64,000 bases of DNA, taken from Candidatus Omnitrophota bacterium (GTDB lineage: Bacteria > Omnitrophota > Gorgyraeia > Zapsychrales > JANLHA01). Shown piece by piece: positions 11,192 through 43,898 of the stretch (positions are counted from its first letter, which is position 1; the number at the start of each line of letters is the position of its first letter). The position numbers and the translations under genes were made by a program. Where the stretch lies: contig JACKFJ010000003.1 of the NCBI GenBank assembly GCA_020632535.1, forward strand, positions 230,166 to 294,165. The letters are read 5' to 3'. Under the pieces are notes generated by a model. The model was not told the origin of the DNA and searched no databases. It worked only from the letters and a program-made list of their open reading frames with translations.

Positions 11192-12049
11192 ATGCAAAAC
11201 GTCACCCAAAAGGCCGATGTCCTCGTTGAAGCGATTCCTTATATTCACGCTTTCCGTCGAAAAGTCTTTGTCATCAAATACGGCGGCAGCATCCTTGATG
11301 ACCCAAAAATCCGCAAGAATATCTTCGAGGATATCGTTTTCTTAAGTTATGTTGGCATTCGCACGATCATTGTTCACGGCGGCGGGCCGCATATTAGCAA
11401 TCGTATTAAAGAATTGGGCGGCGAAACAATTTTTCATGAAGGCATACGCGTGACAGACGCCAAAACTTTGCAAGTTGTCAGCGAAGAATTGGAGAAATTA
11501 AATAATAAAATCGTTGCTGAAATCAAAGACTTAAAAGGTGATGTCACTGGTCTTAAGGGACAGGAAAATATTATTCACGTAACAAAGAAAAAAGCTTCCC
11601 GCGACCTTGGTTTTGTCGGAACGATCACCAATGTTGATAAAAAAGCACTTGAAAAGCATTTACATGAAGGCTATATCACTGTCGTTTCACCAATGGGTGT
11701 AAGCGTAGACCAACAAACGCATAATGTTAACGCCGACGAAGTCGCCGGCGCGATTGCCGTATCATTAGAAGCGGAGAAAATTGTTCTCCTAACCAATGTC
11801 ACAGGTGTTTTGCGTGATCCCAAAGATCCCGAATCACTGATTTCTACGCTCTCAAAAGCGCAGGTGCATGAACTTATTAAAAGCGGCATCATTCAAGGCG
11901 GCATGATTCCCAAAGTCAACTCGTGCATGGAAGTTTTGGCGGGCGGTGTTAAAAAGGCTCACATTATCGACGCACGATTGCGACACGCCTTGTTACTCGA
12001 AATCTTTACCGATAAAGGTATCGGAACACAAATTTTGGCGGATGTATAA
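11192..12049 (+). CDS. argB: acetylglutamate kinase
   Basis: 285 aa; FVIKYGGS, IVHGGGP, NVNADEVAGAIA. Confidence 0.9.
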   Translation: MQNVTQKADVLVEAIPYIHAFRRKVFVIKYGGSILDDPKIRKNIFEDIVFLSYVGIRTIIVHGGGPHISNRIKELGGETIFHEGIRVTDAKTLQVVSEELEKLNNKIVAEIKDLKGDVTGLKGQENIIHVTKKKASRDLGFVGTITNVDKKALEKHLHEGYITVVSPMGVSVDQQTHNVNADEVAGAIAVSLEAEKIVLLTNVTGVLRDPKDPESLISTLSKAQVHELIKSGIIQGGMIPKVNSCMEVLAGGVKKAHIIDARLRHALLLEIFTDKGIGTQILADV

Positions 12050-14278: not shown

Positions 14279-15441
14279 AAAAGGTTGTTTTAGCGTATTC
14301 TGGCGGTTTAGATACATCCTGCGCCATCAAGTGGCTGCAAGACAAAGATTATGATGTTGTGGCGATGATTGCCGACGTCGGACAGGGCGAAGACTTTGAC
14401 GCGATTAAAGAGCGCGCGCTCAAAACCGGCGCGAGTAAAGTGCATGTCTTAAATTTACAAAAAGAATTTGTCAGCGACTATGTTTTTCCCGCGATTCGTG
14501 CTAACGCCATGTACGAAAATAAATATCTTTTAGCAACAGCGCTTTCACGCCCGTTGATTGCCAAGCATCAAGTCGAAATCGCGCATAAAGAAAAAGCAAC
14601 CGCGGTGGCCCATGGTTGCACCGGAAAAGGCAATGACCAAGTCCGTTTTGAGACGACAATTCGTCTTTTGGATCCGAGCCTCGAACACATTGCTCCCGTG
14701 CGTGTCTGGGAATTTAAAACCCGCGATGAAGAAATTGATTACGCAAAAAAACACAAAATTCCTGTGAGTGTCACCAAAAAAAGTCCGTACAGCATCGATA
14801 TCAATTTGTACGGCCGCAGTATCGAATGCGGAATTTTGGAAGATCCTTGGGCTGAACCGCCGGAAGAAATTTATCATTTTACGGTGAGTCCAGAAAAAGC
14901 TCCCGATAAGCCAACGTATATTGAAGTAGATTTTAAAGATGGTACACCGGTTTCGATTGACGGCAAAGTTTATGAACCACTCGCGCTGATTAATAAACTT
15001 AATGAAGTCGGTGGAAAGAATGCTGTCGGGCGTGTTGACGCGATTGAAAATCGCTTGGTTGGAATCAAGTCGCGCGAAATTTATGAGAATCCAGCTGGGC
15101 TTATTCTTTATCTGGCTCATCAGGAATTAGAATCTTTAGTCTTAGACCGTGAAACAGCACATTATAAACAGCTTATTTCACCGAAATACGCGCAATTGAT
15201 TTATAACGGTCTGTGGGAAACACCTTTGAAGAAACAGCTCGATGCGTACATCAATGAAACGCAAAAGAATGTGACGGGAACGGTACGCTTAAAACTTTAC
15301 AAAGGCAACTGTATCGTAGTCGGTCGCAAATCCAAGTTTTCGCGCTATAAATTGCAACTCGCGACATATGGATCAGAAGATCAATTTGATCAAAAAATGG
15401 CTGAAGGATTTTTAAAATTGTGGGCCATGCCGTATTCGTAA
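14275..15441 (+). CDS. argG: argininosuccinate synthase
   Basis: 388 aa; AYSGGLDTS ATP-binding motif, GCTGKGNDQVRFE. Confidence 0.92.
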   Translation: MKKVVLAYSGGLDTSCAIKWLQDKDYDVVAMIADVGQGEDFDAIKERALKTGASKVHVLNLQKEFVSDYVFPAIRANAMYENKYLLATALSRPLIAKHQVEIAHKEKATAVAHGCTGKGNDQVRFETTIRLLDPSLEHIAPVRVWEFKTRDEEIDYAKKHKIPVSVTKKSPYSIDINLYGRSIECGILEDPWAEPPEEIYHFTVSPEKAPDKPTYIEVDFKDGTPVSIDGKVYEPLALINKLNEVGGKNAVGRVDAIENRLVGIKSREIYENPAGLILYLAHQELESLVLDRETAHYKQLISPKYAQLIYNGLWETPLKKQLDAYINETQKNVTGTVRLKLYKGNCIVVGRKSKFSRYKLQLATYGSEDQFDQKMAEGFLKLWAMPYS

Positions 15442-15462
15442 GTTTCGACATTTAAGGAAAAT

Positions 15463-34667: not shown

Positions 34668-35221
34668 AAAAATTATTCATAACAACCGCCTTTACCTTTT
34701 TGCTTCTAAACCCGCTTTTGGTTTATGCTCAAAATATTTCGCAATCACCCATTACACAATTAAAATCAATCATTCAAACACCGCCACCGGACCCATTACA
34801 AACTACCCTTGAGAAAATCAACCAAAATAAAAATCAAAAAAATTCAAGAACTGACGACGATTCTGAAGAAGAAACACAAATAGAGATATTTATCAATCCC
34901 TTTGTTCCACAGATTCCAAAAGATATTAAGCCAGTCGCGGTGAACCCGCAAAACGACAACCAAAATTTGCAAACTCAACCAGTTCCCGTTATCCCTACGC
35001 CACAATTTATTGTTTCCGGATTAATTTGGAACAGTAAAAAACCAGCCGCGATTATGAACGGTCAAGTCGTAGCGATTGGTGATCAGGTAAGCAACTGGGC
35101 TATTTCTGAAATCACAAAAGATGGTGTTCGCGTCTCATATGAAGACCGCAGTTTATGGATTAAACCCATTGTAGATCCCATGAGCCAGCCGCAACAGGCA
35201 ACTCCGGGAAGACGATTTTGA
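34664..35221 (+). CDS. PilP/GspB(T2SSB)/MshK-like periplasmic secretin-associated protein
   Basis: 185 aa. Signal peptide, Pro/Gln/Asn-rich linker, C-terminal block FIVSGLIWNSKKPAAIMNGQVVAIGDQVSNWAISEITKDGVRVSYEDRSLWI typical of PilP/GspB-type domains. Confidence 0.55.
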   Translation: MKKLFITTAFTFLLLNPLLVYAQNISQSPITQLKSIIQTPPPDPLQTTLEKINQNKNQKNSRTDDDSEEETQIEIFINPFVPQIPKDIKPVAVNPQNDNQNLQTQPVPVIPTPQFIVSGLIWNSKKPAAIMNGQVVAIGDQVSNWAISEITKDGVRVSYEDRSLWIKPIVDPMSQPQQATPGRRF

Positions 35222-35250
35222 ACAGTACAAGACAGGACAAAGGAGTCATT

Positions 35251-36789
35251 ATGTTGAAAAAAAATCTTATCATATTATTTCTAGGATGCACAATACTTTA
35301 CAGTACGAACATAGCGATCGCTGCTGATATTGATATCGACACTTCAAGCTCATTTCTTTATCCTGGATTCTCGAAAAAAATATCCATGGATTTTCAAGAC
35401 GCGTCTTTAGTCGATGTCTTAAAAATATTTTCACAGCAGACAAGTATTAATCTCATATCGTCAGAAGAGATCGCTGGAAAGCGTGTTACCGTATATCTTG
35501 ACAATGTTCCAGTCGAACAAGCCCTTGAACAAGTTTTACGGGCCAACAGCTTGACATATGAATTACAACCCGATAGTAATATCTACATTGTCAAACCCCT
35601 CGCAAAACCCGAAATTGAACTCTTAACCCGTGTTTATCTACTCAAACATGCCAGCGTCAGTACGGCACGCATCGGTAAAACCTTAAAAATTGTTTATACC
35701 GTTGATCAAGGTACTACACAGGAAGTAACCGAAAGCACCAAAGGCGGATCTTCTGGTGGTTCATCTGGAGCAGGCGGAGAAGGAAGTCCTGGTATAATGA
35801 GCGCACTTAAGGGAGTTATTACGGCCAAAGGCACTATCGTTGAAGATAGCCGGACAAACAGTCTGACGATTACCGATATCGCGAGCAATTTTAAAAACAT
35901 TGAAACCGCCTTAGCAAAACTCGACACACCCGTTCCGCAAGTTTTAATTGAAGTCGAAATGCTTGAAGTTTCAAAAGAGGTGGGAGATAAAATCGGTGTC
36001 AAATTTGGCGAAACACCACTAACGTTTAATGGCGGAACGCGCGCTGTACTTTACCCCTGGAATCAGAATAAAATTCTACAAAAAGGTTTTGAATTTGAAG
36101 AGGAGTGGACAGCAGGGACGCTCAGTGCCACGGGGATGACCGCTATCCTACAATTTCTTCAAACACAAAGCGATACCAAAAATTTAGCTAGACCACGAAT
36201 TTTAACACTTAACAATCAGCCAGCACAAATTAAAATTGCAACACAGGAAGCTATTGGTTTAACAGAAAGTACGACATCATCACAAAATTTAGCAACAGCA
36301 ACGAGTTCCGCGGAGCGTGTTGAAACCGGCGTTTTCTTAACCGTCACACCACAGGTCGACATCGTTAATAATGAGATTACCATGGCCGTCGTTCCGAAAG
36401 TCATCACGACCACACCCAGCTCAATTACGACGGGTGGTGTTACCCTCAAAGATCCCGAAGAAAGAGGTTCATTGTCAATTTTGCGCGTAGCCAGCGGTGA
36501 TACAGTTGCACTTGGCGGTTTACTACGTGAAGATCACACAACCGTCGTTACTAAAATACCTTTTCTTGGCGATATTCCCTTTATTGGATCGGCATTCCGT
36601 CATAAAACCGAAAACCTTGAGAATCGTGAATTAATCATCTTTTTAACACCGCATATTCTTGAAGATGGATTACAAAAGAATGCCCAAACACCAAAGCGTC
36701 CGATTTTTCGTGAGCAGACTGAACCTTCCCAAAACCGCTTAGAAACTGTCGAACGCGAATTGTCAAACACTCAAAGAAAAAAATTATAA
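35251..36789 (+). CDS. secretin (PilQ/GspD/MshL family)
   Basis: N0/STN-like block MDFQDASLVDVLKIFSQQTSINL. C-terminal secretin signature GDTVALGGLLRED..TKIPFLGDIPFIGSAFRHK....RELIIFLTPHIL. ATG at 35251 preceded by AAGGAG (the track start at 35218 is TTG). Gly/Ser-rich insert at 35737-35793. Confidence 0.9.
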   Translation: MLKKNLIILFLGCTILYSTNIAIAADIDIDTSSSFLYPGFSKKISMDFQDASLVDVLKIFSQQTSINLISSEEIAGKRVTVYLDNVPVEQALEQVLRANSLTYELQPDSNIYIVKPLAKPEIELLTRVYLLKHASVSTARIGKTLKIVYTVDQGTTQEVTESTKGGSSGGSSGAGGEGSPGIMSALKGVITAKGTIVEDSRTNSLTITDIASNFKNIETALAKLDTPVPQVLIEVEMLEVSKEVGDKIGVKFGETPLTFNGGTRAVLYPWNQNKILQKGFEFEEEWTAGTLSATGMTAILQFLQTQSDTKNLARPRILTLNNQPAQIKIATQEAIGLTESTTSSQNLATATSSAERVETGVFLTVTPQVDIVNNEITMAVVPKVITTTPSSITTGGVTLKDPEERGSLSILRVASGDTVALGGLLREDHTTVVTKIPFLGDIPFIGSAFRHKTENLENRELIIFLTPHILEDGLQKNAQTPKRPIFREQTEPSQNRLETVERELSNTQRKKL

Positions 36790-36790
36790 A

Positions 36791-38503
36791 ATGGCGCATT
36801 TAAAGTTAGGTGAAATTCTGCTTCAGCAAGGATTGCTCAATGAAGAGCAGCTGCGCGAAGCCATACAAGTCCAAAAAAGAGATTCTGGACGTATCGGAGA
36901 AATTCTCATTAAATTGGGTTTTCTCACGGAAGAAGATATTGTTGCGGCATTGGGAAGTCAATTGAATATTCCTCATGCTAGTAGCCAAAACAATCTGCTC
37001 AAACCCCGCGTCGATCAAAATTTAGATAAAATTCTTCCATACGACTTTGCGAAAACAAATCTTGCCTTACCACTAAGCAAGGAAGACAACAAACTCACAT
37101 GCGCGGTTGATGATCCGCTTGACTTGCTAATGCTTGATAATTTGCGAATGGTCACAGGGTGCGAAGTGTCGTTAGTCCTTGCTACCCGTTCCGATCTCAT
37201 GGCTGCCATTCAAGATTTTTATACTTTAGCGCGATCCAATGCAGGGACACCTATGGCGCTGCCATCGGACAATATCGAAGGAGAAACACCTGTTCCTGCA
37301 GATCCTAAAGTTGGCCTCAAAGATAATAATTTGGATGACATGATTGAAAAAGCTGAAGAACCTCCTGTTATTAAACTTGTTGATTTGATTATCCGCCAAG
37401 CGATTGAACAGCGCGGCAGTGATATTCACATCGAATCCTATAAGGATAAAATTAATTTACGATACCGTATTGACGGTATCCTCTATCAAATTCCACCACC
37501 AGCCCGACATCTTTTATTACCAATTGTTTCTCGTCTTAAAATTCTTGCCAAACTCGATATTGCTGAAAAACGTTTGCCACAAGACGGATCCATTGCTTTT
37601 AAAATAGGTGAGAGGACTGTTGATTTGCGTATTTCAACTGTTCCGACAGTATGGGGCGAAAAAGTTGTTATGCGTATTTTAGATAAATCCGCGGTACCTC
37701 TACGTCTAGAAAATTTAGGTTTTAATGAAGTTCAGTTGGAACGCATCCGCAAAGCTCTCAAAAGACCATATGGCCTATTTTTCGTTACCGGTCCAACGGG
37801 AAGTGGAAAATCAACAACACTTTATTCCGCACTCAGTGAAGTCATGGATCCACGCAAAAATATCGTTACCGCTGAAGACCCGGTAGAATTCAAACTTGAC
37901 GGGATAAATCAGGTCGCAGTACGTCCTGACATCGGCTTAACATTTGCTTCTGTTCTGCGTGCTTTTTTACGTCAAGATCCTGATATCATCATGGTTGGTG
38001 AGGTTCGTGATCTTGAAACCGCACAAATCTGCGTTCGTGCGGCTTTAACAGGACACTTTGTTTTAAGTACCCTTCATACAAATGACGCATCCGCCGCCAT
38101 TACGCGTCTCTTGGATATCGGGATTGAATCATACCTTTTAACACCGTCGCTTTCGATGGTATTAGCACAGCGCTTGGCGCGCAGACTTTGCTCAAAATGC
38201 AAAGAGCCAATGGAACCAAATCCTGATCTTTTGGGTGGGCTTAAATTTAACAGCGACCTTATTTACAAAGCCGCGGGCTGTGATGAATGCAATCATACTG
38301 GCTACCGCGGCCGACTTGTTATTACGGAGGCCATGGTCATTGATGATAATTTGCGCGAACTTATGACCAAAAAGGCCGGCTATTCTGAAATTCTTGATGC
38401 CGCTCGCAAGGGTGGCATGGATACATTATTTGAAGACGGAATTAAAAAAGTCGAAGCAGGATTAACCAGTCTTGATGAAATTTTAAGTGTAACCGCACTT
38501 TAA
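36791..38503 (+). CDS. GspE/PilB/MshE-family secretion ATPase with MshEN-type N-terminal domain
   Basis: 570 aa; Walker A GPTGSGKSTT, Asp/His boxes, tetracysteine CSKC...CDEC; N-terminal tandem 24-residue MshEN motifs (residues 5-28 and 34-57). Confidence 0.92.
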   Translation: MAHLKLGEILLQQGLLNEEQLREAIQVQKRDSGRIGEILIKLGFLTEEDIVAALGSQLNIPHASSQNNLLKPRVDQNLDKILPYDFAKTNLALPLSKEDNKLTCAVDDPLDLLMLDNLRMVTGCEVSLVLATRSDLMAAIQDFYTLARSNAGTPMALPSDNIEGETPVPADPKVGLKDNNLDDMIEKAEEPPVIKLVDLIIRQAIEQRGSDIHIESYKDKINLRYRIDGILYQIPPPARHLLLPIVSRLKILAKLDIAEKRLPQDGSIAFKIGERTVDLRISTVPTVWGEKVVMRILDKSAVPLRLENLGFNEVQLERIRKALKRPYGLFFVTGPTGSGKSTTLYSALSEVMDPRKNIVTAEDPVEFKLDGINQVAVRPDIGLTFASVLRAFLRQDPDIIMVGEVRDLETAQICVRAALTGHFVLSTLHTNDASAAITRLLDIGIESYLLTPSLSMVLAQRLARRLCSKCKEPMEPNPDLLGGLKFNSDLIYKAAGCDECNHTGYRGRLVITEAMVIDDNLRELMTKKAGYSEILDAARKGGMDTLFEDGIKKVEAGLTSLDEILSVTAL

Positions 38504-38529: not shown

Positions 38530-39777
38530 GTGCCACGTTTTCATTATGTTGCCAAAGATTCAAACGGAAAAAATATAACTGAAGAAACTGAAGCTTTTGA
38601 TAAAGCAAGCCTCATTCAATCACTTCAACAAAAAGGATACTTCATTCTCTCTGTTGAAGAGCAAGCCGCTACCTCAACACACATCGCAACAACAGAAGAA
38701 AGTACCAAAAAATTTACCCACTCGGGTATCAAGTTACTGGACATGCTCAACTTTGCCAATCAATTGGCAACAATGCTTGATTCCGGAATTACCATTTTAC
38801 GCGCACTGGAAGTTATTGTTGATCAGGTCGAAAGTAAAAACTTTTATGCGATTTTGCAGAAAGTTAATGCAGATGTTGAGCAAGGTAGTTCACTGAGCGA
38901 AGCCTTATCACGTTTTCCTAAAGTTTTTGACCAGTTGTGGGTCAGTCTTATCGAAGTCGGGGAAGCTTCCGGAACAATGCCAATGGTTCTTAAAAAACTG
39001 GCTTTTTATCTCGAACAAAAAGCCGCCTTTCGCGCAACCGTCACGTCGGCTGTTATGTATCCAGCTGTTCTTTTTGTCGTCTGTCTCGGCGCCATCGCCT
39101 TTTTCGCATTATTTATCGGCCCGCGTTTTGAAAGTATTTTTAACACAATGAACGTTGAATTGCCTTTGATTACCAAAGTCCTGCTTTCAACATTCCGTTT
39201 CATTAAAGAAAAATTTTTAATGCTAGTCATGAGTGTTGTCATTGGTATTTTCCTATTCCGCAAATACAGTAAAACGCCTATGGGCCGCGCGCATGTCGAA
39301 CAATTCCTATTTGGTTTGCCCGTTATCGGCAATATTGCCAAACTCATTGTTATCGAAAGATTTACTTCACAAATGTCCATTTTAGTCGACAGCGGGGTTC
39401 CTATTCTCTATGCTTTAGATATTACACAAAGGCTTGTAGATAATTCCATTTGCGCGGGCGTTATCAATGATATTAAAGAAAGTGTCCGACAGGGCGAATT
39501 GCTCGTCGCACCCATGCAACGCAGCAAATTTTTCCCTTCGATGTGTATTCAAATGATTTCCGTCGGCGAAGAAACCGGTGAATTGAGTAAAATGCTTACG
39601 CACGTTGCGACATATTATCAACAAACTGTCGAAACTTTTATGAAACGCCTTGGAACGCTCATTGAACCATTCATGCTTGTATTTATGGGGGGCGTTATTG
39701 GCGTCATTGTTCTTGCCATGTTCCTTCCCATGTTTAATATTGCGCAATTAGGTGGGGCAGGAGGGGCAAGACATTAA
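38530..39777 (+). CDS. GspF/PilC/MshG-family platform protein
   Basis: 415 aa; N-terminus PRFHYVAKDSNGK, duplicated T2SSF-type blocks (LSEALSRFPKVFD..., GEETGELSKML); GTG start preceded by AAGGAG. Confidence 0.9.
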   Translation: MPRFHYVAKDSNGKNITEETEAFDKASLIQSLQQKGYFILSVEEQAATSTHIATTEESTKKFTHSGIKLLDMLNFANQLATMLDSGITILRALEVIVDQVESKNFYAILQKVNADVEQGSSLSEALSRFPKVFDQLWVSLIEVGEASGTMPMVLKKLAFYLEQKAAFRATVTSAVMYPAVLFVVCLGAIAFFALFIGPRFESIFNTMNVELPLITKVLLSTFRFIKEKFLMLVMSVVIGIFLFRKYSKTPMGRAHVEQFLFGLPVIGNIAKLIVIERFTSQMSILVDSGVPILYALDITQRLVDNSICAGVINDIKESVRQGELLVAPMQRSKFFPSMCIQMISVGEETGELSKMLTHVATYYQQTVETFMKRLGTLIEPFMLVFMGGVIGVIVLAMFLPMFNIAQLGGAGGARH

Positions 39778-39804: not shown

Positions 39805-41571
39805 ATGAATTCACAACCTTTTAACCGCATACACAACTACTCTACGGCTTTTTTTCTCATCATTGTCATTGTGCTTTGCCATGGTCTAAGTGTTAAAGCA
39901 CAATTTATGGTCGACGATTTTGATTATTTGCCCCAAGGCCAAAAACAAGCAATCTATCAAAATCTACCCGATCTTTTCCTCAAGTCAGAAGTCCATCATT
40001 ACAATCCTTTGAATATCGCACTCAATATTTCCTTGTTCAAAACGTACAAATCCGCCTCAAGCCTTTACGCAATCAATCTCTTGCTATTTTACGGAAATAC
40101 TCTTTTACTTTTTATTCTTGTCACACGTTTAACGCAAAATTTAGAAATAGGCGCGCTGACTGCAATACTATTCGCTGTTCACCCTGTAAATGCGGAAATG
40201 TTAAGCCATATAACATTAAATACTGTAATGGTCTGTGCCGCATTTCTGCAGACTAGTATGATTTTATTCTGGCGCCACATTACCTCTCCCCAAAAGACAG
40301 TAAAAAGTATTTTACTAAGCCTCATCCTTTTCCTATTTGCTCTATTGTTTCTTGAAACAGCCTTACTTTTCCCTATCTATCTAAGCCTATTGTGCCTTGT
40401 AAACAAAAATGACCGCTGGCAAAATTTGCGTCAGACAATACCATTCTGGATCACTGCATTTTTATATTTTGGCCTTTGGTGTTTGATGGCTGGTCCAGCA
40501 GGGCAATGGAACGATAAAATTCAGCATTTACAATTTTCTTTTGAAAGTTATACCGCAACATTAAGTTTTTTACTTCAGTGGTATTTTCAAAATTTAATTA
40601 TCCCAAATAATTTTGTGTTAATAAAGAATTCTCCGGCACTATCTCATTCAATACTCTTTTGGAATAGCGCATTGCTATTAGGGATTTTTTTGACAATTTG
40701 CCTATTATGGTTCTGGCGAAAGAATATAAAGAAATTTGCGTTGGCATGGTTTATCTCAGGTTTTACTTTTATGCTCCCAGCAAGCATCGTCCACGCATAC
40801 AGCATGGGCATTGTCATTGAACCTCATTGGTTTTATTTTTCATCGATGGGATTCTTTATGCTTTTTGCGTTATCTCTCAATGATCTTAAACCACGGATTC
40901 AAACAATACTTTATCGCTCACTTATATGTGTCCTCGTAATTTTCTGGGGATTAACATCTTTTCGACACCATGTCATTGCACGTACCGAAATCAGTTATCT
41001 TGAATATTGGTTAAAAAACAGTCCGAACAATAGACTCCCAGCCTCAAAACTCGGCCTTTTATACGGTTCAAATAATGGCCTTACCATTCCAGCTGAATTA
41101 ATTTCCGATATGGACAATCAAACAGATTACTTTATAAAAGCGAATCACTATAGTGAATCCATTGATCTTTTAGAAAAACTTGTAAAGCAAAATCCAATGA
41201 ATCCTAAGCACAATATATGGGATGATAGATTATCCGCTTTATACTTAAAAGTAGGCGAGACTGTCACTGCTGAAAATCGATTTAAACTGCGTTTTACCAA
41301 AAAACTGCCTTTAAAAGAGTACCTTATGCTGGCTCAATTGTTAGAACAGCTTGAAATCCGTGAAAAAGCTCTTACTGTCCTTGATCAGGGCCTGATCTAC
41401 TATCCACAACAGGTGGATTTAGTCTATCTTAAAGCCGTAATTCTCGCTAACCAAAACCGCTTTTCTGAAGCAGAATCGCTATTAAAAGCACAAAATCACG
41501 TAGAAAAAGACGAACGCTACTTAAAATTATTAAAGGATATTGAAACAATAAAATTAAAGACACAAAAGTAA
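39805..41571 (+). CDS. TMTC-like (DUF1736-type) GT-C fold glycosyltransferase with C-terminal TPR domain
   Basis: 588 aa. About 11 predicted TM segments. First-loop FMVDDFDYL acidic motif. LFAVHPVNAEMLSHI resembles the TMTC/DUF1736 HPxxxE block. TPR-like C-terminus. Confidence 0.65.
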   Translation: MNSQPFNRIHNYSTAFFLIIVIVLCHGLSVKAQFMVDDFDYLPQGQKQAIYQNLPDLFLKSEVHHYNPLNIALNISLFKTYKSASSLYAINLLLFYGNTLLLFILVTRLTQNLEIGALTAILFAVHPVNAEMLSHITLNTVMVCAAFLQTSMILFWRHITSPQKTVKSILLSLILFLFALLFLETALLFPIYLSLLCLVNKNDRWQNLRQTIPFWITAFLYFGLWCLMAGPAGQWNDKIQHLQFSFESYTATLSFLLQWYFQNLIIPNNFVLIKNSPALSHSILFWNSALLLGIFLTICLLWFWRKNIKKFALAWFISGFTFMLPASIVHAYSMGIVIEPHWFYFSSMGFFMLFALSLNDLKPRIQTILYRSLICVLVIFWGLTSFRHHVIARTEISYLEYWLKNSPNNRLPASKLGLLYGSNNGLTIPAELISDMDNQTDYFIKANHYSESIDLLEKLVKQNPMNPKHNIWDDRLSALYLKVGETVTAENRFKLRFTKKLPLKEYLMLAQLLEQLEIREKALTVLDQGLIYYPQQVDLVYLKAVILANQNRFSEAESLLKAQNHVEKDERYLKLLKDIETIKLKTQK

Positions 41572-41605
41572 TACTTTACATCTTTAGGTACAGGATCAGC
41601 TGAGG

Positions 41606-41634
41606 TTGACATTCCCTATTTGACATGTTATACC
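41606..41634 (+). promoter_or_regulatory. putative promoter of the pilin leader transcript
   Basis: TTGACA (41606-41611), 17-nt spacer containing a TG at 41626-41627 (extended -10 type), TATACC (41629-41634). Confidence 0.35.
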
Positions 41635-41654
41635 TTACCTAGAAAATTGGTATT

Positions 41655-41738
41655 GCTCGAAAAGGGTAAACTATCCGTAAGGGTAGGGCACAAAACTATA
41701 GGGTCCCGGCAAATTGTGGGGGATAGCCAGTTACCAGC
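41655..41738 (+). promoter_or_regulatory. candidate c-di-GMP-I (GEMM-I)-like riboswitch aptamer in the pilin leader
   Basis: Blocks occur in the same order as in the V. cholerae Vc2 aptamer as I recall it. AAAAGGGTAAA, then a 6-bp hairpin CTATCC-GTAA-GGGTAG (GNRA loop, 41671-41686). Next GGCACAAAAC (compare GACGCAAAGC). Next helix CTAT...ATAG (41696-41699 / 41723-41726). Finally CCAGTTACC (compare GGGGTTACC). GGTAA (41665-41669) can pair with TTACC (41731-41735). The core differs at several normally conserved positions. Confidence 0.4.
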
Positions 41739-41757
41739 AAAAAAAATTGCATAATGT

Positions 41758-41803
41758 GCCTATTCTAGGGTAGAATGAAACAAAATTAGAATAGGCATTT
41801 TTA
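41758..41803 (+). terminator. intrinsic-terminator-like hairpin (possible riboswitch expression platform)
   Basis: Perfect 10-bp stem GCCTATTCTA (41758-41767) / TAGAATAGGC (41787-41796) followed by ATTTTTA; lies between the candidate aptamer and the pilin start codon. Confidence 0.5.
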
Positions 41804-41918
41804 TTGAAACCTGACAACCCCTAAAGGAGGGATGACGAGACAAGAGAGAAGTGACACAGAATTTAACCAAATTAATAAAAATGAAAACAATGAAGTTTAA
41901 TATAAAGGGAGTATTTAA

Positions 41919-42341
41919 ATGAATATCAAATCTAAGAAAAGTGGTTTTACGTTGCTCGAAATTATCATCGTTGTTATTATCGTTGGTGTTTTAGCCAGCT
42001 TGGCTTTACCAAAATTCTTCAGCACGGTTGAATTCTCACGCGCTCAAGAAGGTTTATCCGCCCTCGCAACTATCCGCGGCGGTTTGGAACGTTTTTATGT
42101 TTCAAAAGGTAATACCTATAGCGGGGCAACAACTGCAAATATTGATACGGGTGACCCTTTAGCTGGTCAACCTAACGCGCATTTTACTTGCGCTGTTACT
42201 GCGGCTTCTGCGACAGGTTATACAATCACCGCGACTCGTAATAGTGTTGATGGTGGTACGGCTGGTAACACCATTGTTATTCAACAAACAACTGCTACTA
42301 TTACACGTTCTGGTACAACAGCATTTGCTGGTATTAACTAA
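41919..42341 (+). CDS. major prepilin/pseudopilin (type IV pilin-like, GspG/MshA-like)
   Basis: 140 aa. Leader MNIKSKKSG then FTLLEIIIVVIIVGVLASLALPKF (G/FTLxE cleavage motif with Glu+5). Thr/Ala/Gly-rich C-terminal half. First and best-RBS pilin gene. Confidence 0.85.
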   Translation: MNIKSKKSGFTLLEIIIVVIIVGVLASLALPKFFSTVEFSRAQEGLSALATIRGGLERFYVSKGNTYSGATTANIDTGDPLAGQPNAHFTCAVTAASATGYTITATRNSVDGGTAGNTIVIQQTTATITRSGTTAFAGIN

Positions 42342-42362
42342 TACGCAGTTTAGAAGTTTAAA

Positions 42363-42418
42363 ACATCAAAGCAACATCGGAGATATTAACATAGTGCGCT
42401 CTGATGTTGCTTTGATGT
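42363..42418 (+). terminator. strong hairpin after the major pilin gene (attenuator or stabiliser; no clear U-tract)
   Basis: Perfect 16-bp stem ACATCAAAGCAACATC (42363-42378) / GATGTTGCTTTGATGT (42403-42418). Confidence 0.5.
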
Positions 42419-42449
42419 CTTAGATTCAATCAATACTGGATTAAAACCT

Positions 42450-42860
42450 ATGAAGAAAATACACGTGCAAGGCGGTTTTACAATCATGGAAATTTTAATT
42501 ACAGTCCTCATTGTTGGTATTATCGCAGCATTTGCAATTCCAAACTACGGGAAATCTGTCGATCAAACTCATATCCAAGATGCAGTCATGCAGCTTTCGG
42601 CTATTCGCACCGCAAATCAAGTCTATTACGCGCGTAGATCCGAATATTGGCCAAGCACGTCGACTCATCCGGTTAATGAAATCAATGCAAATTTAAGTTT
42701 AAGCATAATTGAAAATGGTAAAACTTACAATTGTGATGGCAACGGAACAACTTTTACATGTACAGCAAAGCGTTCTGGCGTTCAAATTGCTGGGGTAACA
42801 GAAGCTCCGTTAAGTACGACAAACCCGGGGTGTCCTAGTGCAGGGACCGCGTGTAATTAA
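42450..42860 (+). CDS. prepilin-type protein (second pilin)
   Basis: 136 aa; MKKIHVQGG then FTIMEILITVLIVGIIAAFAIPNY; four Cys in the C-terminal part. Confidence 0.8.
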   Translation: MKKIHVQGGFTIMEILITVLIVGIIAAFAIPNYGKSVDQTHIQDAVMQLSAIRTANQVYYARRSEYWPSTSTHPVNEINANLSLSIIENGKTYNCDGNGTTFTCTAKRSGVQIAGVTEAPLSTTNPGCPSAGTACN

Positions 42861-42882
42861 CATTTGCGTGAATTGATATTTT

Positions 42883-43254
42883 ATGAAAATTCTTGCTCAA
42901 AACTGTAAAAAAAATAACCGCACAGGTTTTACAATTACCGAAGTTATCATTTCCACACTGATTTTTTCGCTAGCCATGGCTGGCGTTTTTTCCAGCATTT
43001 CCCAATTACGGCAACCTGCGGTTGAATCAAGCCAAGAAGTCACAGCCGCATTTCTTGGCAAAAAGATATTGGATGATTTGCGTGGTGACGTCAGTCAAGA
43101 CACATGGAATTCCGGAAACTTGGTCGCTGGCACAACGTATGGACCATATACGCAGACAATTGGAGGCAAACAATATTTTTATTCTTATGACGTTATCGCT
43201 GATCCCGACGGAACACGAGCCCGACAAGTTACACTCAATGTAACATGGAACTAA
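42883..43254 (+). CDS. minor prepilin-type protein (GspI/MshC-like size)
   Basis: 123 aa; leader ending NNRTG then FTITEVIISTLIFSLAMAGVF. Confidence 0.7.
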   Translation: MKILAQNCKKNNRTGFTITEVIISTLIFSLAMAGVFSSISQLRQPAVESSQEVTAAFLGKKILDDLRGDVSQDTWNSGNLVAGTTYGPYTQTIGGKQYFYSYDVIADPDGTRARQVTLNVTWN

Positions 43255-43898
43255 TAATGAATATCCACTTTAAAAAAGGGATGACGCTCACCGAACTCAT
43301 CATCGCCACAGTACTCGTTGGAATTGTGACGTTAGGACTGGTTGCTGCAGAACAAGCGGTACGAATGTCCCGTCAATCGTCCATGCGTGACAGTCAAATT
43401 TCTGGACAAATGCAAGCGACAATGCTCGTTTTAAACAGAAGTGCCAGCCTGACAGTAGGCGATTCTGCAAATACCGGAATTTATCAATACCTTTCTAGCA
43501 ATGATATGACAACATGCTTTCGACAAGGTGCCGGTGACGTGAATGTTTATACCGACGATGTGTGGACATGTTGGTGGGTTGACATATCATCGGGCGGAAA
43601 CCCCGTATTAACAAGCTGTGAAAATCTCAACAGCCCTGTGACCACTTGCAACGGACAGGCAAGTTTGCGAGAATGGGTCACACTGGTTTTTGAAGGATCT
43701 TATACGCAATTCTGCTCTGTTGTTGATACTGGTGGTTTTACAATTACCCCTCCCAATGCCATTATAACGGGAACAAAAGTTGCATACATTCAACTCACCC
43801 TTCAGTCTCGTCATAATAAAGACAAAGCAGCGCACCCCATTGAAAATCCCGATTATACTCTTACCGCCAATATTAGTCCGTCTGGACTAAGTCGCTAA
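43245..43898 (+). CDS. minor prepilin-type protein (GspJ/PilW/MshD-like size)
   Basis: 217 aa; ...HFKKG then MTLTELIIATVLVGIVTLGLV; alternative ATG at 43257. Confidence 0.7.
   Translation: MELIMNIHFKKGMTLTELIIATVLVGIVTLGLVAAEQAVRMSRQSSMRDSQISGQMQATMLVLNRSASLTVGDSANTGIYQYLSSNDMTTCFRQGAGDVNVYTDDVWTCWWVDISSGGNPVLTSCENLNSPVTTCNGQASLREWVTLVFEGSYTQFCSVVDTGGFTITPPNAIITGTKVAYIQLTLQSRHNKDKAAHPIENPDYTLTANISPSGLSR

Follow-up and report, generated by a model that had tools for sequence, protein, structure and literature searches.

A predicted class I cyclic di-GMP riboswitch and intrinsic terminator in the pilin leader of a Candidatus Omnitrophota type IV pilus locus

Introduction

To our knowledge, all seven functional class I riboswitches of Clostridioides difficile are OFF switches that act by termination. 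GEMM-I RNAs that select 3'3'-cyclic GMP-AMP (cGAMP) carry an A at position 20, a rule that is said to come from work by Kellenberger and by Nelson in 2015 (as cited in PMC7266159). The GEMM family has been linked from the start to pilus genes, including pilM, pilO, pilQ, pulF and cpaA, and for many of its members an ON geometry has been described, with overlap between the terminator and the aptamer's 3' hairpin (PMC1950547). The riboswitch of the C. difficile pilin gene pilA1 belongs to class II of the cyclic di-GMP (c-di-GMP) aptamers and is an ON switch (PMC6366702). Here we describe the leader of a type IV pilin gene in a Candidatus Omnitrophota genome (contig JACKFJ010000003.1), from which a stretch of 64 kb, referred to below as the window, was analysed. 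An earlier note on this DNA, made from the sequence alone, had proposed that the leader holds a c-di-GMP-I aptamer followed by an intrinsic terminator. We present evidence from model searches, orthologous leaders and RNA folding that bears out this proposal, and we suggest a direction in which the RNA may switch.

Results

A class I aptamer in the pilin leader

The leader occupies the 347-nucleotide (nt) spacer between the upstream stop codon and the pilin ATG (41572-41918); its length, and the sequence blocks, promoter, and hairpin with T-run that the earlier note had listed within it, are all as described there. Both strands of the window were searched with the Rfam models, and the sole riboswitch match was to RF01051 (c-di-GMP-I), on the + strand at 41655-41738, the same segment in which the aptamer had been proposed. 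Its alignment spans the complete model (1-87), and its score of 56.1 bits exceeds the gathering score of 35; the E-value, calculated over both strands of the 64-kb window, is 2.7e-8. A tRNA at 47417-47489 was the other match at gathering level. A search of both strands of 41500-42000 for other RNA families at E <=10 returned chance-level matches only (CRISPR-DR8, E 0.71; serC leader, E 7.4), and the c-di-GMP-II model gave no match in this interval even at E <=10. The resemblance to c-di-GMP-I is far beyond chance. Judged by its alignment, the segment 41653-41740 is a genuine class I c-di-GMP aptamer (GEMM-I), situated at the predicted 5' end of the structural pilin operon transcript, and the RNA is predicted to bind c-di-GMP.

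The RF01051 alignment, read in the numbering of the Vibrio cholerae aptamer Vc2, places the equivalent of G20 at G41665, the unpaired G preceding the GU of GGGUAAAC; that of A47 at A41692, the first A past CAC; and that of C92 at C41734, the C within UUACC. The equivalents of the interhelical pair C44-G83 are C41689 and G41726, whose pairing in three dimensions is predicted. The roles of these five nucleotides have been described (PMC4744006 and PMC5888326), and the C44-G83 pair is universally conserved (PMC4744006). All five are canonical in the window, so that the earlier description of the aptamer as divergent, with several invariant core nucleotides changed, has to be given up. An AAA linker joins the two hairpins of the window aptamer, as in the RF01051 family.

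The single departure beside the pocket that had been suspected to be compensatory, namely the T of GGGTAAA together with the A of GGCACAAAAC, proved to be a base pair: U41667 and A41690 are paired model positions, equivalent to C22-G45 of Vc2, and RF01051 scores them as compatible. The receptor segment of RF01051 (CUAA...uAuG) is deleted in the window alignment, leaving a P3 helix that lacks the 11-nt GAAA receptor, and the P2 helix is capped by a GUAA loop. GYRA tetraloops are almost never accompanied by the receptor, and a receptor-less GEMM subtype has been known since 2007 (PMC1950547); the GUAA loop and the missing receptor therefore place the window RNA in that subtype.

Conservation among orthologous leaders

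Relatives were collected by using the T2SSF protein of the locus as query against species-representative genomes, which yielded 42 loci, all from Candidatus Omnitrophota metagenome-assembled genomes, some of them labelled 'uncultured Planctomycetales'. Identity to the window T2SSF protein ranges from 44 to 88%. A contig from the assembly of run SRR12358675 carries a gene for the identical pilin as well. We built our own covariance model, R1, from 15 aptamers and ran it on all 42 loci and the window. It scored 87.2 bits in the window (41651-41742) and identified 35 aptamers in 33 of the 42 loci plus the window, every one of them on the pilin strand; loci without an aptamer match were mostly truncated contigs. 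These 35 aptamers and their leaders underlie the pairing, pocket, terminator and pilin statistics that follow. Tested singly, 10 of 12 orthologous loci also passed an Rfam threshold in the c-di-GMP-I clan.

The helices are supported by covariation. Across the 25 model pairs, 92.3% of the cells are base-paired and 15 pairs show changes on both sides, values obtained on an alignment fitted to our own model and hence biased towards the structure. None of 500 shuffles reached the observed pairing values, and controls in which the partner was slid were only 31-48% paired. RNAalifold, applied to an unfitted MAFFT alignment, independently recovered both P2 and P3 with covariation. The position equivalent to C22-G45 is UA in 30 orthologs, UG in three and CG in one. 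The U-A pair is a true compensatory replacement and the norm across the clade. Positions 47 and 92 are conserved in all orthologs, and position 20 is G in 33 of the 35.

The two sequences that differ at position 20 are L020 (4110-4223), which has A, the cGAMP-type change, and L022 (11426-11562), which has U; each is a single metagenome-assembled sequence in which an assembly error is possible. A search for diverged aptamers at E <=10 gave no match in four loci with enough flank (L015, L016, L021 and L035) nor in two short loci. The leader of L035 (about 11400-11590) has kept P1, a P2-like hairpin, GGCAC and a UGUGCCUAUUCUAC terminator and has lost P3, and the leader of a second pilin in L021 (about 2050-2270) has kept the conserved promoter and lost both aptamer and terminator. 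The pilin leaders of L015 and L016 are of a different, riboswitch-less type. In L031 the riboswitch-terminator-pilin unit is present as two tandem copies (14331-14451 and 15336-15457).

An intrinsic terminator downstream of the aptamer

On its predicted fold, the segment 41756-41806 is an intrinsic terminator, that is, a stable G+C-containing hairpin directly before a U-run. Its stem comprises 11 Watson-Crick pairs and one G-U pair, four of the pairs being G-C, with a folding energy of -15.4 kcal/mol, and is followed by TTTTTATT. A simple terminator scan missed this hairpin only because it limited loops to <=8 nt, and the loop of 19 nt in the window is unusually long. The hairpin is present in the full-length minimum-free-energy folds of the window transcript, and it lies wholly 3' of the aptamer, which it does not overlap.

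The same order recurs in all 35 orthologs: a stable hairpin (-9 to -27 kcal/mol) with a U-run follows the aptamer at a distance of 0-45 nt, and 89-390 nt past the aptamer begins the gene of an orthologous pilin, about 140 amino acids (aa) in length. With the RF01051 match and the covariation described above, the succession of c-di-GMP-I aptamer and intrinsic terminator holds throughout the set, and we consider it very probable that this RNA is a riboswitch acting by attenuation.

Part of the terminator 3' strand is repeated within the terminator loop (41768-41777) as (G)GGUAGAAU, a duplicate that is also found in the closest relatives (L001, L003, L005 and L020) and is able to pair with either the terminator 5' strand or the P2 5' strand.

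A candidate antiterminator that engages the aptamer core

The 5' flank and 5' strand of the terminator, UGUGCCUAUUCU (41755-41766), are complementary to aptamer nucleotides that include the A47 equivalent. UGUGCC (41755-41760) is complementary to GGCACA (41687-41692), the A47 equivalent included, and the pairing is extended by CUAUUCU (41760-41766) with AGGGUAG (41680-41686). The P2 5' strand CUAUCC (41671-41676), in turn, has its partner in GGGUAG (41768-41773), within the loop of the terminator. The duplex energy is -13.5 kcal/mol in the window and lies between -12 and -14.5 kcal/mol in most orthologs. The terminator flank and strand are conserved in sequence, as UGUG(N)CCUAUUCUA, and not in structure alone; their complement in the aptamer, AGGGUAGG(G)CACA, comprises the P2 3' strand, the C44 junction, the 3' half of the two-pair helix and A47. 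Between aptamer and pilin start, the terminator 5' site is the best partner of this aptamer segment in 27 of the 35 leaders. Compensatory changes are seen in L006 (GGCGC with GCGCC) and L013 (CGCA with UGCG); L037 pairs GGGCU with AGUCC, and L030 and L028 stay compatible through G-U wobbles.

Folding the window transcript at growing length showed that GGCACA:UGUGCC forms once 41760 has been made and extends from 41777 onwards, and that the terminator becomes the lowest-energy structure only at 41797, when the last stem nucleotide is out. With the aptamer pairs enforced in the folding, the terminator formed unhindered. A further small hairpin, GCAA-AAAAAA-UUGC, uses the P1 3' strand, and similar hairpins over this strand can be read in the leaders of L005, L003, L010, L011 and L014; it is predicted to compete with P1 when ligand is absent and would fit inside the ligand-free fold.

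These data suggest the following sequence of events. Transcription would begin at the conserved promoter (41606-41634) so that the aptamer is made first, and the aptamer would then control the terminator located entirely downstream of it. When ligand is absent, the core would be loose, allowing GGCACA, which contains the nucleotide normally stacked between the two guanines of the ligand, to pair together with the P2 3' strand with UGUGCCUAUUCU; in this lineage, the P2 5' strand would also pair with the GGGUAG copy in the terminator loop. The antiterminator would thereby hold the terminator 5' strand, and the polymerase would read through into the pilin gene. Binding of c-di-GMP would lock the aptamer and prevent the antiterminator, so that UGUGCCUAUUCUA is freed to build the terminator and the polymerase halts ahead of the pilin gene.

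Promoter and remainder of the leader

The TTGACA-17-TATACC promoter noted earlier is supported by comparison among the orthologs, since TTGACA-N16-18-TGnTATAC(C/T/A)TT recurs 5' of the aptamer in most of their leaders. It was missed by a simple promoter scan, the cause being that its -10 box ends in C, and comparative analysis was used instead. Transcription is predicted to start near 41641, some 12 nt 5' of P1.

Right after the U-run, 16 of the 35 leaders share a motif in the same relative place, with the consensus AACC(C)-N3-4-(C/U)AACC(C)-N3-5-AAGGAG(U/G)GAUG, which occurs almost nowhere else in the loci and has no Rfam match. From its sequence, it may be an mRNA stabiliser resembling a Shine-Dalgarno site. 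A role as a small open reading frame (ORF) was rejected: the ORF would have 3 to 22 codons, with about 2 nt between Shine-Dalgarno sequence and ATG, and the short ORF 3' of the motif is not conserved among orthologs. L015 and L016, whose leaders have no riboswitch, carry a similar Shine-Dalgarno-like core close behind a TATAAT box.

The pilus locus and its c-di-GMP context

The gene order, in which Pfam domains identify a secretin, an ATPase, a platform protein, a tetratricopeptide repeat (TPR) protein and four prepilins, is by its sequence that of an MSHA-like type IV pilus, with the riboswitch heading the structural pilin block (Table 1). The N-terminus of the ATPase (36791-36970) contains two consecutive 24-residue motifs, KLGEILLQQGLLNEEQLREAIQVQ then RIGEILIKLGFLTEEDIVAALGSQ, and resembles the tandem c-di-GMP-binding MshEN motif reportedly described by Wang et al. 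in 2016. In Vibrio, c-di-GMP-binding MshEN motifs activate extension of the MSHA pilus. The locus may sense c-di-GMP twice, by RNA and by protein.

Directly past the major pilin stop and before the next prepilin gene lies a perfect 20-base-pair hairpin (42363-42418); the region 42342-42449 folds with -39.5 kcal/mol (z-score -7.6) and has no clear U-run. This hairpin is probably an attenuator or stabiliser that would set the ratio of major to minor pilin.

Table 1. Coordinates of the pilin leader elements and neighbouring genes in the 64-kb window
Feature	Position	Strand	Details and basis
Promoter (predicted)	41606-41634	+	-35 TTGACA 41606-41611; 17-nt spacer; extended -10 TG 41626-41627; -10 TATACC 41629-41634
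c-di-GMP-I aptamer	41653-41740	+	RF01051, model R1, covariation
Aptamer P1	41653-41659 with 41735-41740	+	C41658 bulged; model alignment
Aptamer block GGGTAAA	41664-41670	+	Read from sequence
Aptamer two-pair helix	G41666-C41691, U41667-A41690	+	Model alignment
Aptamer P2 hairpin CTATCC-GTAA-GGGTAG	41671-41686	+	41671-41676 with 41681-41686; sequence, model
Aptamer P2 loop GUAA	41677-41680	+	Sequence, model
Aptamer block GGCACAAAAC	41687-41696	+	Read from sequence
Aptamer P3 (second helix)	41694-41707 with 41720-41732	+	Sequence, model
Aptamer block CCAGTTACC	41727-41735	+	Read from sequence
Small alternative hairpin GCAA-AAAAAA-UUGC (predicted)	41737-41750	+	Minimum-free-energy folds; uses P1 3' strand
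Antiterminator partner strand (candidate)	41755-41773	+	Folds, duplex energy, ortholog complementarity
Intrinsic terminator (predicted)	41756-41806	+	Stem 41756-41767 with 41787-41798; loop 19 nt (41768-41786); U-run UUUUUAUU 41798-41805
Post-terminator leader motif AACCTGACAACCCCTAAAGGAGGGATG	41808-41834	+	Conserved in 16/35 leaders
Pilin ribosome-binding site AAAGGGAG	about 41904-41911	+	
Major type IV (MSHA-like) pilin, 140 aa, regulated gene (predicted)	41919-42341	+	Pfam N_methyl and ComP_DUS
Four N-methyl prepilins (first is the major pilin, then three more)	41919-43898		Pfam
Secretin	35218-36789		Pfam
MshEN + T2SSE ATPase	36791-38503		Pfam
T2SSF platform protein	38530-39777		Pfam
TPR protein	39805-41571		Pfam

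Discussion

Direction of the switch and rival readings

Our analysis favours an OFF switch, a direction that we regard as probable and to which three observations point: the terminator lies outside the aptamer, the complementarity of the antiterminator is conserved, and the growing-length folds pass through the antiterminator before the terminator. Aptamer and terminator do not overlap and so can form together; this is OFF-switch geometry. Several points weigh against this direction. At equilibrium, the full-length RNA favours the terminator fold (-46.6 kcal/mol) over the antiterminator fold (-37.9 kcal/mol) even when the aptamer is not constrained; as the full-length RNA prefers the terminator in either state, regulation has to act kinetically. 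When the truncated transcripts were folded, only 19 of the 35 orthologs showed the antiterminator in the minimum-free-energy structure, L010, L011 and L042 have different terminator sequences and weaker complementarity, and both antiterminator segments are so highly conserved that few independent compensatory events are available. A crude motif search of the 64-kb window found no GGDEF motif, a result that is uninformative for the whole genome. OFF logic is also biologically counter-intuitive beside an ATPase that bears c-di-GMP-binding-like MshEN motifs and whose response to c-di-GMP is probably positive, and the only experimentally studied pilin riboswitch, that of C. difficile pilA1 (class II), is an ON switch (PMC6366702). 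An ON direction for the same riboswitch, in which the terminator would form by default and c-di-GMP would cause read-through, so that pilin rises as the MshE-type ATPase is activated, would be biologically coherent with the two c-di-GMP-binding-like motifs of that ATPase, would match pilA1 and would agree with the equilibrium preference for the terminator. However, when we looked in the folds of the window transcript for a structure that could coexist with the bound aptamer while blocking the terminator, none was found; the terminator is wholly outside the aptamer, whereas terminators of ON-type GEMM RNAs overlap the aptamer 3' hairpin; and apart from the aptamer core, which ligand would sequester, nothing conserved competes for the terminator 5' strand. 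We therefore consider an ON switch unlikely.

The remaining explanations concern the ligand, the promoter and the functionality of the RNA. The earlier note had raised a variant class with altered specificity, and a GEMM-I variant for another ligand (3'3'-cGAMP, cyclic di-AMP or an unknown compound) finds some encouragement in the clade-wide U-A replacement of C22-G45, which adjoins the binding pocket, in the A and the U at position 20 of one ortholog each, and in the score of the variant family RF03167 (c-di-GMP-I-GGC), which nearly equals that of RF01051 here and is at or above threshold in three orthologs. Yet the window carries the c-di-GMP triad G20, A47 and C92, its pocket is canonical, RF01051 scores the U-A as a compatible pair, and a type IV pilus locus is a classic setting for c-di-GMP, which leaves altered specificity very improbable. 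Membership of c-di-GMP-I-GGC was rejected, the RF03167 score of 55.2 bits being below the gathering score of 59 and the window and all 35 orthologs having A where the consensus has G, at the A47 position; the 'GGC' of the name reportedly stands for positions 20, 47 and 92 in the work of Weinberg et al. 2017 (PNAS). Sensing of cGAMP as in GEMM-Ib was rejected likewise, cGAMP-selective RNAs having A at position 20 where the window has G41665, and L020 alone showing A. The gathering score of RF03167 is passed by L003 (7160-7259), L012 (5479-5576) and L032 (11369-11447) despite their A at position 47; the score thus reflects the shared short P3 and not the defining change, and automatic annotation could mislabel such sequences as the variant. 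A real aptamer and terminator might also be bypassed, with a second promoter 3' of the terminator driving pilin and the riboswitch tuning upstream read-through. The conserved motif right past the terminator, the TATAAT box with its Shine-Dalgarno-like core in the riboswitch-less L015 and L016, and the distance of about 115 nt between terminator and pilin start would fit this, but the simple promoter scan found no promoter-like hexamer pair on the + strand in 41806-41918, and 35 leaders preserve promoter, aptamer, terminator and pilin as one block, which in L031 has been duplicated whole. The internal promoter TTGCAT/TAGAAT suggested earlier is weak (its -35 matches at 3 of 6 positions), is absent from the promoter scan list and is not conserved in orthologs, and we regard a bypass as quite improbable. 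That the resemblance is due to chance, or is the decayed relic of a riboswitch with no regulatory function, is hardly credible: decayed relatives do exist, as in L035 and at the second pilin of L021, but the RF01051 score is 21 bits over the curated threshold, every core nucleotide is intact, and strong covariation and synteny persist over 35 leaders whose neighbouring T2SSF proteins share only 44-88% identity.

Significance

The RNA is an ordinary class I member belonging to a phylum-wide set, which routine Rfam annotation would detect, and it represents neither a new RNA class nor a new ligand. What is new is confined to three points: the lineage of the host, the U-A pair that characterises the clade, and the proposed OFF control of a pilin gene through a P2-mimicking antiterminator. 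In the literature we found no paper that links Omnitrophota with riboswitches beyond incidental mentions. A wider proposal, which we put forward tentatively and hold to be doubtful as a whole, is that a lineage-specific c-di-GMP-I form governs pilin across Omnitrophota, combining U22-A45, a P2-mimicking terminator and OFF logic with the consequences for the ATPase and for drifted relatives that follow here. If so, the ligand-free RNA would swap strands between two look-alike hairpins, and pilin would be turned off at high c-di-GMP; an OFF switch combined with a c-di-GMP-binding MshE-type ATPase would give incoherent, pulse-like control of the pilus; and another cyclic dinucleotide may have become the ligand of the few relatives in which position 20 is A or U.

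The hosts are ultra-small, possibly host-dependent bacteria. In this uncultured lineage, our analysis indicates, the pilin operon is directly connected to c-di-GMP through RNA and probably through the ATPase too, which offers a testable handle on the surface behaviour of Omnitrophota, where genetics are lacking. The 35 aligned leaders also form a clean natural data set on the co-evolution of expression platform and c-di-GMP-I aptamer.

Comparison with described riboswitches

Among described RNAs, Vc2 of V. cholerae (RF01051) is the reference to which the window aptamer is most readily compared. The two share the three-helix fold, a GNRA-capped P2, the AAA linker, the G20, A47 and C92 contacts and the C44-G83 pair, and the window scores well over the family threshold. 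They differ in the U-A that replaces C22-G45 beside the pocket, in the bulged C of P1, in the GUAA (GYRA) tetraloop with a P3 that lacks the 11-nt GAAA receptor, and in the host, Candidatus Omnitrophota. The window RNA also has the classic setting of the GEMM family at large, the 5' leader of a gene with a pilus, motility or surface function. The scaffold, the short P3 and the missing receptor also recall c-di-GMP-I-GGC (RF03167) and the cGAMP-binding GEMM-Ib RNAs of Geobacter, from which the window differs in having A and not G at 47 and G and not A at 20.

Cd1 and the other class I OFF switches of C. difficile resemble the window RNA in aptamer class and in ligand-favoured termination, as proposed here. 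Cd1 controls flagellar genes, whereas the window RNA precedes a pilin gene, and the putative antiterminator of the window would use the P2 3' strand, pocket nucleotides and a P2-like duplicate in the terminator, and not simply the P1 3' strand. The c-di-GMP-II riboswitch Cdi-2-4, which precedes pilA1 in C. difficile, is similar in that it occupies the leader of a major type IV pilin gene and works through a terminator. Its class II aptamer has an unrelated fold and acts as an ON switch, whereas the anatomy of the window leader points to OFF control of the pilin by a class I aptamer.

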